Shown: positions 2,637 through 2,711, counted from the first letter of the stretch. The stretch: DNA of 64,000 bases from a virus (IMGVR_UViG_3300032007_000013); one strand, 5' to 3'. Notes: a model not told the origin generated them from the sequence alone. Translations and numbers: made by a program.

Positions 2637-2711
2637 CCTCCTATCGTCCAATGGTAAGATGCTGGACTCTAACTCCAGAGATGCCCGTTCGAATCGAGGC
2701 TGGGAGTGCCA
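2637..2711 (+). tRNA. amber suppressor tRNA (anticodon CTA, reads UAG), Gln-tRNA-like
   Basis: Anticodon arm CTGGA-ctCTAac-TCCAG is unambiguous. The acceptor end (TGGGAGT-G-CCA) and 5' end (CTCCTA) closely match the neighbouring tRNA-Gln(CTG). The T stem is imperfect. Confidence 0.8.

Follow-up and report, generated by a model that had tools for sequence, protein, structure and literature searches.

The CUA-anticodon tRNA of a TAG-recoded jumbo phage is probably a glutamine-inserting amber suppressor

A tRNA gene with a CUA anticodon, lying among the glutamine tRNA genes of a virus, raises the question of whether it encodes a working amber suppressor and, if so, which amino acid it delivers at UAG. 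We examined a 64-kb stretch of DNA (64,000 nucleotides of IMGVR_UViG_3300032007_000013, hereafter the window) and 3 kb of its upstream flank, from a genome of ~241 kb that was recovered independently as the same contig in an ENA assembly and a JGI metagenome. Taken as a whole, the evidence is best explained by a functional amber suppressor that inserts Gln and is encoded by a ~241-kb jumbo phage, the host of which reads TAG as stop, and we give this reading a probability of about 80%. The tRNA genes on which the argument turns are as follows.

2637-2711, + strand: tRNA(CUA), amber suppressor, 75 nt including the encoded CCA (ARAGORN, Rfam, covariation, cloverleaf energy)
1272-1345, + strand: tRNA-Gln(CUG), the suppressor's closest paralogue in the genome, with acceptor pairs 2-7 in common (ARAGORN, Rfam)
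615-688, + strand: tRNA-Gln(UUG) (ARAGORN, Rfam)

ARAGORN, named among the checks in the original prediction, called five tRNAs in the 64-kb window, one of them with a CUA anticodon at 2638-2707 on the plus strand, and the Rfam tRNA model RF00005 matched 2638-2706 with 34.2 bits against a gathering score of 29, the lowest score of any Rfam tRNA within the window. We prefer the frame 2637-2711 to 2638-2707 because it provides G73 (2708) and an encoded CCA (2709-2711); CCA is also encoded in most other tRNAs of the array. The predicted CUA tRNA thus stands on both calls and on covariation in 17 homologues, and the two Gln tRNAs that had been placed beside it were likewise recovered by ARAGORN and Rfam.

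In this frame, the acceptor stem is formed by C2637 (position 1) and 2638-2643 with 2701-2707, with a C1·U72 mismatch ahead of the clean pairs 2-7. U8 and C9 (2644-2645) lead into the D stem GUCC/AGAU (2646-2649 with 2657-2660), which contains one C·A mismatch (2649/2657, C13·A22) and closes the D loop AAUGGUA. The anticodon arm reads as had been predicted, with five clean pairs (CUGGA/UCCAG, 2662-2666 with 2674-2678) and the loop CUCUAAC (2667-2673), in which U33 and A37 flank the CUA at 2669-2671. The variable loop is AGAU (4 nt) and the T loop UUCGAAU. The T stem had been described as carrying two mismatches; it instead forms five Watson-Crick pairs, GCCCG (2683-2687) with CG-[A2697]-GGC (2695-2700), with A2697 bulged.

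Single-sequence MFE folding returned non-cloverleaf structures for tRNA(CUA) and for both adjacent canonical Gln tRNAs, with z-scores near 0, and we dropped it as a test of the cloverleaf because bona fide Gln tRNAs fail it too. Direct evaluation of cloverleaf energy and covariation were used in its place. The cloverleaf of tRNA(CUA) was evaluated at -16.0 kcal/mol against an MFE of -18.9, and that of tRNA-Gln(CUG) at -16.2 against -18.4, which we take as an equal gap; a stable cloverleaf is thus possible at this locus.

ARAGORN prints the name tRNA-Pyl for any CUA anticodon. Genuine tRNA-Pyl has a 3-nt variable loop, a 6-bp anticodon stem, a small D loop without G18G19 and a single base linking the acceptor stem to the D stem, and goes with pylS/pylBCD genes. 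The CUA anticodon is the sole feature that tRNA(CUA) has in common with it: unlike tRNA-Pyl, tRNA(CUA) keeps G18G19 in a D loop of normal form, separates the acceptor stem from the D stem by two bases (U8, C9), and combines a 5-bp anticodon stem with a 4-nt variable loop and the T loop UUCGAAU, so that its structure rules out this name. No pyl domains were found among the 34 window proteins scanned against Pfam.

The irregularities of this cloverleaf were then compared across phages. A large family of 100-400-kb viral contigs has a common layout, in which a long tRNA array stands upstream of a DUF2828/DUF7788 gene, and an IMG/VR pattern scan together with related loci provided 17 distinct CUA tRNAs of the target's design for alignment. 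In this set, whose members were chosen partly for their fit to the bulged model, 96% of the pair cells are paired and both sides change in 19 of the 21 pairs; the observed score was reached by none of 500 shuffles, and no slid register came near it either. Acceptor pairs 2-7 are paired in every case (100%), and position 1:72 is a mismatch in 12 of the 17, G·U in three, U-A in two and never G-C. Pairing of the T stem reaches 100% with the bulge (perfect in 17/17) versus 69% without it, and in the unbulged register the pair 48:64 never formed. Among the IMG/VR pattern matches, 20 of 76 fit perfectly with a bulge at the target's position and none with a bulge elsewhere, and in the complete set of fetched loci 18 of 132 distinct CUA tRNAs have the bulge, versus 4 of 1135 other tRNAs. 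The T-stem bulge is therefore conserved and backed by covariation, and it is found almost exclusively in CUA tRNAs. Because the irregularities of tRNA(CUA) are conserved, and the bulge is concentrated in CUA tRNAs, we regard them as selected features and not as decay. The bulge may tune EF-Tu binding or processing, and the molecule could be less stable, or bind EF-Tu less well, on account of C13·A22, the 1:72 mismatch and the bulge.

The genome itself is recoded, as had been predicted. ORF coverage is 58% with TAG as a stop and 83% with TAG read through, and the longest ORF lengthens from 642 aa to 1647 aa. The 57 ORFs checked contain 151 in-frame TAGs in total, with at least two in 27 of the ORFs, and all of them terminate with TAA or TGA. 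Three genes illustrate the pattern.

55189-56415, + strand: PIN-PhoH gene with 7 in-frame TAGs (Pfam, 120 homologues, PDB 3b85)
56469-58928, + strand: multidomain endolysin gene with 16 in-frame TAGs (Pfam domains span the TAGs)
17780-22657, - strand: tail-fibre-like gene, 1625 aa, with 13 in-frame TAGs (ORF analysis)

The endolysin, the PIN-PhoH protein, a radical-SAM protein and a permease all have Pfam domains that extend over TAG positions. The standard-code annotation at JGI fragments the TAG-containing genes, whereas the ENA annotation leaves them whole. The product of 17780-22657, which is called as a 1623-aa product in L001, is a putative tail fibre on account of its repetitive, fibre-like sequence. 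Besides the endolysin, tail-fibre-like and PhoH genes, the window holds homing-endonuclease and other phage genes, and recoding extends beyond the late set to several GIY-YIG/HNH-type homing endonucleases, glycosyltransferases and the radical-SAM enzyme. A nucleotide search with 40000-64000 gave no match of ≥85% identity among 50,697 deposited phage records, and a distant nucleotide search with 500-6000 gave matches limited to generic tRNA and HNH segments; the phage thus appears to have no close relative among deposited phage records. Within the window, no CUA tRNA other than that at 2637-2711 was found, and no gene for a cognate synthetase was seen.

The amino acid that TAG stands for was read from conserved positions. 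In the PhoH protein, TAG codons 210 and 333 align with Q in 120/120 homologues and codon 211 in 99/120, and in the endolysin the TAG codons 268, 140 and 582 align with Q in 120/120, 114/120 and 102/120, respectively; because homologues possibly translated with code 15 would inflate such counts, we also compared PDB 3b85, a solved standard-code PhoH, in which Q stands opposite both TAG-333 (DEAQN motif) and TAG-210. The share of Q at TAG columns is 59% versus a background of 3.3% for PhoH and 33% versus 4.7% for the endolysin. In cross-phage alignments of the fetched loci, Q reaches 19.5% opposite TAG versus 3.3% background, a sixfold enrichment; K and E are enriched about twofold, and Lys and Glu are the next commonest residues after Gln at TAG-aligned columns. 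Codon usage agrees: the TAG-containing genes have 147 TAG, 205 CAA and 19 CAG codons, versus 4 TAG, 116 CAA and 78 CAG in the genes classed as TAG-free (p = 7.5e-15), so that TAG has largely replaced CAG in the TAG-containing genes. The claim that recoded positions carry Q is thus upheld by the invariant-Q columns, PDB 3b85 and CAG depletion together, and TAG means glutamine at these conserved positions.

We then asked how far tRNA(CUA) itself resembles a glutamine tRNA. The three readers of CAA, CAG and TAG are grouped within 2.1 kb, and the acceptor and 5' ends of tRNA(CUA) are indeed near-identical to those of tRNA-Gln(CUG), as had been stated: the first 10 nt differ at position 1 alone and the last 11 are identical, within an overall identity of 73%. 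The loci L025 and L076 are examples of the same suppressor type with an acceptor stem common to the resident tRNA-Gln(CUG). With the anticodon masked, the top-five neighbours of the 17-member subfamily are Gln in 27 of 70 cases (base rate 9%) and Trp in 12 of 70, and the single best neighbour is of mixed isotypes. The target itself ranks closest to Thr, Cys and Arg tRNAs, with Gln(CUG) next, all within a few score points, and whole-tRNA similarity was set aside as an isotype guide on account of this ambiguity. The proposed descent from tRNA-Gln therefore holds for the acceptor end, but the whole-body similarity is moderate, for which reason we call it likely and not proven.

The bacterial Gln identity set comprises G73, U1-A72, G2-C71, G3-C70, G10, U34, U35, G36, A37 and U38 (PMC9976931). 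tRNA(CUA) carries G73, G10, U35 and A37, with A at position 36 and C at position 38; C38 is also present in the phage tRNA-Gln(UUG). The comparison of identity elements that had been proposed thus came out in part: G73, U35 and G10 are in place, G36, a strong GlnRS determinant, is necessarily absent as in any amber suppressor, and C1·U72 is unpaired and not the literal U1-A72 element, though compatible with it in function, given that mismatched tRNA-fMet(CUA) is glutaminylated. G2-C71 and G3-C70 of the E. coli set are replaced by C2-G71 and U3-A70, identical to those of the phage tRNA-Gln(CUG), and the E. coli rule for 2:71 and 3:70 may not fit the host because this resident Gln tRNA has the same pairs.

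G73 is found in 16 of the 17 subfamily members and in 55 of 76 phage Gln tRNAs, which mostly combine G73 with A-U or U-A at 1:72. The Glu, Lys, Leu and Tyr tRNAs of these phages carry A73, and those identities are therefore disfavoured for tRNA(CUA). Taken over all designs, 116 distinct phage CUA tRNAs include 58 with a mismatch at 1:72 and 14 with G-C; the 870 other elongator tRNAs include 26 and 539, respectively. In E. coli, 1:72 decides the Gln acceptance of amber tRNA-Ser and tRNA-fMet (PMC9976931), tRNA-Trp(CUA) is likewise captured by GlnRS (PMC2965240), and isotype models assign 69% of phage suppressor tRNAs to Gln and 19% to Trp (PMC10879173), in line with the neighbour counts of the subfamily. 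Since G73, G10 and U35 are present and 1:72 is unpaired, the design favours capture by a GlnRS-type enzyme, and we infer that the host GlnRS would charge it.

Related phages also carry CUA tRNAs with a long variable arm, in which the extra-arm loop resembles a Gln anticodon loop (CUCUGAA, UUCUGAG or CUUUGAA) in 10/10 cases in the family loci and in 38/64 in an unbiased scan. TAG is aligned with Gln in those phages too. Insertion of Ser, Leu or Tyr by these long-arm tRNAs is not supported, since the residues aligned with TAG are led by Q and give no S, L or Y signal.

The surroundings of tRNA(CUA) bear on its expression.

2168-2202, + strand: sigma-70-like promoter, TTGAAA-N17-TATAAT (2168-2196) and then ATATAT (11/12 consensus match)
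2249-2593, + strand: TAG-free ORF of 114 aa, no Pfam match, with its stop 43 nt before tRNA(CUA) and in the same orientation
2601-2627, + strand: 9-bp hairpin GCGGATTGG-N9-CCAATCCGC, without a T-run, between the ORF stop and tRNA(CUA)

The promoter at 2168 is one copy of a phage-wide motif, TATTATATAATATATAT, which has 25 matches against 0.8 expected, and most copies stand before TAG-free genes. It is the likely start of a transcript that would cover the ORF and tRNA(CUA). Terminator calling returned no terminator for the hairpin at 2601-2627, which may serve processing or stability. In related phages the tRNA array has a homologue of the ORF as a constant component, usually directly upstream of a tRNA (CUA or Ser); a role as dedicated suppressor partner was rejected, because homologues also precede tRNA-Ser in fetched loci without a CUA tRNA. 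The putative promoter and the TAG-free ORF upstream of tRNA(CUA) would fit early expression, in agreement with a published model in which the components of the code change are kept in standard code and made early, so that the recoded genes are unlocked at a later stage (10.1101/2021.08.26.457843).

The first 6 kb of the window form a dense RNA island. An intron of 375 nt, which gives a sub-threshold group I signature, interrupts its tRNA-Leu(UAA) at 34/35, and the tRNA at 3604-3728 has a hairpin insert of 49-53 nt in the anticodon loop together with a Gln-like acceptor end (U1·U72, G73) and is missing from the closest relative. Conservation with that relative is 100% for a tRNA-like gene whose anticodon loop has 8 nt. 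A conserved ORF-free stretch of ~800 nt lies 3' of tRNA-Gln(CUG), and no credible Rfam family was matched in 1346-2140. Elsewhere, the window encodes a tRNA/RNA repair set consisting of a Thg1-like enzyme, RlaP, an RNA ligase, and a kinase and phosphatase.

On the preferred reading, tRNA(CUA) and the TAG-free ORF would be transcribed early by the host RNA polymerase from the sigma-70-like promoter, and processing would release the 75-nt tRNA(CUA) with its CCA already present. Glutamine would then be loaded, most likely by the host glutaminyl-tRNA synthetase, which would tolerate A36 because U35, G10 and G73 are kept and the 1:72 position, which GlnRS must open, is unpaired. The charged tRNA would decode UAG in competition with release factor 1 and thereby permit full-length translation of at least 25 TAG-containing genes in the window, including those for the endolysin, the tail-fibre-like protein, PhoH, homing endonucleases, glycosyltransferases and the radical-SAM enzyme.

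Glutamine might also arrive at UAG by an indirect route, in which a non-discriminating GluRS and GatCAB would act on tRNA(CUA) in a host without GlnRS. GlnRS is absent from many bacteria, and the SH3 and PG-binding modules of the endolysin hint at a Gram-positive host. GluRS2-type enzymes and amidotransferases accept U1-A72 and reject G1-C72 (PMC9976931), and the phage Gln and CUA tRNAs do avoid G-C at 1:72. However, the 1:72 mismatch is not the U1-A72 pair read by GatCAB, the main element for the B. subtilis GluRS is a modified U34 (PMC9976931) whereas the suppressor has C34, and CUA suppressors are taken directly by GlnRS in E. coli (PMC2965240, PMC9976931). We consider this route unlikely, though worth keeping in mind. 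A search for the host with the tRNA pattern against 185,579 species genomes gave 74 matches but no reliable host; the seven tRNA-like matches all lie on MAG or other uncultured metagenome-derived contigs, and one of the seven is on the same contig as a phage contig of the related loci (L151), filed under an uncultured Clostridium.

The unpaired first position might also reflect a gate on maturation. Base 1 would be removed or skipped, and a phage Thg1-like 3'-5' polymerase would rebuild it as A1-U72, as in tRNA-Gln(CUG), so that the suppressor would become fully active only once this enzyme had been made. The phage encodes a bacterial-type Thg1-like protein (35283-36071; Pfam Thg1 1.6e-32; PDB 4kgk 6.8e-47) with RlaP, the RNA ligase and a kinase/phosphatase pair near its gene, enzymes of this type mend 5'-truncated tRNAs in a template-dependent manner (PMC3061083, PMC4820378), and the close relative L006 (3300028805_000039) has the same kind of suppressor and a Thg1-like gene. 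All of this is purely circumstantial, however, with no nuclease step identified; the mismatches, which are confined to position 1 and to CUA tRNAs, are already covered by GlnRS identity, and phage tRNA repair genes are usually read as counter-defence against anticodon nucleases. The search for Thg1-like genes retrieved four related loci, too few to judge co-occurrence with mismatched suppressors, and we hold a gate of this kind to be quite improbable.

Decoding of UAG with another amino acid is very unlikely. Lys, Trp and Glu were considered, these being classes one anticodon change away or known to capture CUA suppressors. Amber suppressors are commonly mischarged by the E. coli LysRS (PMC2965240), and K and E rank second and third at the TAG-aligned columns; yet the invariant columns are Gln, including that in the catalytic DEAQN motif of PhoH, and these phages carry A and not G at position 73 of their Lys and Glu tRNAs. 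For Trp, the phage tRNAs also combine G73 with A1-U72 and are the second commonest neighbours of the subfamily, and it is the class that isotype models name for 19% of phage suppressor tRNAs (PMC10879173). Against this, W stands opposite TAG in 1 of 1920 cells of the endolysin alignment, and TrpRS needs a CCA anticodon, the E. coli tRNA-Trp(CUA) having become a Gln acceptor (PMC2965240).

That tRNA(CUA) is a decaying or non-decoding tRNA-like element (a pseudogene, a tRNA-nuclease decoy or an integration target), with TAG read by something else, is hardly credible: its three irregularities (C1·U72, C13·A22 and the T-stem bulge), its lowest Rfam tRNA score in the window and its non-cloverleaf MFE fold would suit a relic, but the irregularities are conserved amid covarying stems (1:72 unpaired in 12/17, the bulged T stem perfect in 17/17), the canonical neighbours have non-cloverleaf MFE folds too, and the 147 TAGs in clearly real genes need a reader, for which the window offers no other CUA tRNA.

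A Gln-inserting suppressor would place the phage in known company. Phages that read TAG as Gln (code 15) with a suppressor tRNA(CUA) are known from gut and rumen and include crAss-like, Lak, Agate, Sapphire, Topaz and other jumbo phages (10.1101/2021.08.26.457843; PMC9523058; PMC13037316). Suppressor tRNAs and recoding are well documented in such phages, and the code has been confirmed by metaproteomics (10.1101/2021.08.26.457843; PMC9523058; PMC13037316; PMC10879173). The locus has every testable feature of this class. It resembles the known members in these points: a phage-encoded tRNA(CUA) in a low-GC genome (30%), TAG aligned with Gln, TAGs concentrated in lysis, structural and other genes with many replication and early genes TAG-free, and tRNA(CUA) lying in a standard-code stretch, with no cognate synthetase gene seen in the window. 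In contrast to the published code-15 phages, TAG is frequent here in homing-endonuclease genes too and not in late genes alone, and the suppressor is one of a subclass in which the T stem is bulged and 1:72 unpaired. In the searchable literature we found no account of the bulged T stem, of the way in which a 1:72 pair is systematically avoided, or of the Gln-like loops of the variable arm, which is not proof of novelty.

The supE (glnV) suppressor of E. coli is a tRNA-Gln with a CUA anticodon that inserts Gln at UAG. Like supE, tRNA(CUA) has a Gln-type acceptor end (G73 and a weak first pair), G10, U35, and a CUA that equals CUG with G36A (identity set in PMC9976931). Unlike supE, its first pair is an outright C·U mismatch, followed by C2-G71 and U3-A70, and it has a 4-nt variable loop, C38 and the bulged T stem; it is also not a mutant allele but a dedicated gene beside intact CUG and UUG isoacceptors. 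The amber derivatives of E. coli tRNA-Trp (su7), tRNA-fMet and tRNA-Ser become Gln acceptors: tRNA-fMet has a C1·A72 mismatch and its mismatched CUA form is glutaminylated, tRNA-Ser(CUA) turns to Gln after changes at 1:72 and 3:70, and CUA with G73 and a weak or mismatched 1:72 suffices for capture by GlnRS (PMC9976931; PMC2965240). Those derivatives are laboratory mutants, whereas here the same combination is naturally conserved across many phage lineages.

Suppressors associated with theta ribozymes occur in code-15 gut phages, with 69% of predicted Gln isotype and an enrichment of RNA-ligase genes (PMC10879173), and an RNA ligase is encoded here as well (28331-29584). In contrast to the ribozyme-linked suppressor tRNAs, of which just 4.5% encode CCA (PMC10879173), tRNA(CUA) encodes its CCA (2709-2711) and has an AT-rich 3' flank. 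No HDV-like or other ribozyme family of Rfam was matched in 1-7000 at E <= 1, a search in which the theta model may lie outside Rfam 15; with CCA encoded and no ribozyme family matched, a theta-ribozyme-linked suppressor was rejected.

The principle at work is known, since phage suppressor tRNAs for TAG = Gln have been published, and the new details are limited to the bulged T stem and the unpaired 1:72. The practical value lies in correct annotation under code 15, because code-11 gene callers fragment the genome, and in a well-documented example. It is a tentative thought, with the odds against it, that phage amber suppressors are purpose-built to hijack the glutamine charging and delivery machinery of the host. 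This view would draw on the avoidance of a stable 1:72 pair in nearly all of them, on the T-stem bulge of a widespread subclass (this tRNA included), which adjoins the pairs that set EF-Tu affinity, and on the Gln-like extra-arm loops; in an extension of it, the phage Thg1-like enzyme might also rebuild base 1. If these features are adaptive, they would represent a natural answer to how a host synthetase efficiently charges a stop-codon reader, a question open in the recoding literature. The unpaired 1:72 and the bulged T stem are testable handles on GlnRS, EF-Tu and RF1 competition, and possible design rules for engineered amber suppressors. A Gln-inserting tRNA(CUA) would be the key with which this jumbo phage uses a second genetic code in a host of the standard code; in its absence the endolysin and the tail-fibre-like protein would be cut short, as would the products of more than 20 other genes in the window.

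CUA tRNAs of other classes occur in other loci as well. In sister phages (loci L012, L027, L040, L053, L057, L070, L072, L073, L078 and L083, together with L206-L325), these are tRNAs of 88-95 nt with a long variable arm, whose hairpin loop, CUCUGAA, UUCUGAG or CUUUGAA, resembles the anticodon loop of tRNA-Gln. This loop is present at 10 of the 10 family loci and, in a scan with the arm left unspecified, in 38 of 64 distinct sequences, with YUGA variants in most of the remainder. Inspection by eye of the listed variable arms of tRNA-Ser, tRNA-Leu and tRNA-Tyr at these loci revealed no such shared loop. 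Only 8 of 53 long-arm CUA tRNAs have G-C at 1:72, as compared with 50 of 51 tRNA-Ser, and Gln leads at TAG-aligned positions in these loci, rather than Ser, Leu or Tyr. The IMG/VR loci L086-L205 (mainly of the large 3300045988 dataset) carry a second class, of type I, which shares the CUCUAAC loop with the suppressor but has a regular T stem and A73; of 41 such CUA tRNAs, 38 have a mismatch or G·U at 1:72.

The tRNA island of the window contains the following additional elements:

1346-2140, + strand: ORF-free stretch directly 3' of the CCA of tRNA-Gln(CUG)
3604-3728, + strand: tRNA with a hairpin insert in the anticodon loop (Rfam, 35 bits)
4819-4890, + strand: AT-rich tRNA-like gene (flanks, 4791-4905) with the 8-nt anticodon loop CUUGUUAA
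4911-5372, + strand: type II tRNA-Leu(UAA) with a 375-nt intron between U34 and A35

The ORF-free stretch, which by eye is higher in G+C, is a candidate large structured RNA. Its counterpart in the closest relative, L006, occupies the same position with 80% identity, conservation in the loci L145 and L025 is partial, and two short islands (~1393-1429 and ~2080-2112) are 90-100% identical in far more distant relatives. An Rfam search of the stretch gave no credible match; some relatives have a tmRNA in the corresponding part of the array.

The U34/A35 split of the tRNA-Leu(UAA), here in a phage, is the classic group I intron site of this tRNA, and a focused Rfam scan matched Intron_gpI at 4936-5201 (35 bits, E = 2.4e-7), under the gathering score of 50. 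The intron also includes a 59-nt direct repeat (5042-5100 and 5204-5262, 85% identical). The insert of the 3604-3728 tRNA, a GCUGAAU...AUUCAGC hairpin of 49-53 nt, falls short of the length that a group I intron requires. This tRNA has a Gln-like acceptor end (U1·U72 mismatch, G73 and CCA) and a predicted sigma-70-like promoter of its own at 3530-3558, is without a counterpart in L006, and has an ambiguous anticodon once the insert is removed, as different junctions would give CUG, CUA or CAA.

The tRNA-like gene at 4819-4890, with several acceptor-stem mismatches, is bracketed by the inverted repeat AGACAGAT...ATCTGTCT, and with its flanks it is 100% identical to the L006 copy over 115 nt; conservation is lower in the other shared stretches that were compared (1346-2140, 80% identity in DNA; the ORF at 2249-2593, 95% identity in protein). 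The motif AGACANNNNCAGCAAYT occurs three times in the window (491-507, 4422-4438 and 4791-4807, + strand; 0.18 expected), always within the tRNA island. Its copy at 491 is followed by a tRNA-like 3' half, called as a tRNA by no tool, with a perfect T arm (ATCGG-TTCAAGT-CCGAT) and a GCCA end at ~556.

A promoter-like motif, TTGAAA-N17-TATAAT-ATATAT, recurs across the window (e.g. + strand, 2186, 4392, 22917, 25792, 40932 and 46260); its core TATTATATAATATATAT gave 25 matches at up to two mismatches, versus 0.8 expected, and the genes downstream of most copies are free of TAG. Also TAG-free throughout is a set of tRNA/RNA repair genes:

22960-24062, + strand: AAA_33 kinase + metallophosphatase
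28331-29584, + strand: RNA ligase (PHA02142 OB domain)
35283-36071, + strand: bacterial-type Thg1-like 3'-5' polymerase (Pfam, 1.6e-32; PDB 4kgk, 6.8e-47)
36535-37377, + strand: RlaP nucleotidyltransferase

Since G-1 is mostly genome-encoded in the phage tRNA-His genes, the Thg1-like enzyme probably serves in 5'-end repair rather than in G-1 addition.

Two further gene sets stand out by composition:

6912-8411, 2249-2593 and 31457-32347, + strand: TAG-free genes with clearly raised GC3 (0.29-0.41)
2800-3528, 6147-6875, 27338-28324, 29677-30669, 34435-35265 and 43594-44349, + strand: very AT-rich genes (GC 0.22-0.27) with 3-10 in-frame TAGs apiece

The former, a minority of the TAG-free genes, encode Gln by CAG, not CAA (17 CAG and 0 CAA in the DUF2828/DUF7788 gene, for example), and this usage together with the higher GC3 suggests that they were acquired recently or else form an expression class of their own. 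Among the AT-rich genes, 34435-35265 encodes GIY-YIG and NUMOD1 domains and 2800-3528 is similar to an annotated HNH endonuclease; the other four, for which no family was called, share by eye an N-terminal DLTNQ-FG motif. If the AT-rich genes are homing endonucleases, TAG recoding in this phage would extend beyond the late structural and lysis genes.
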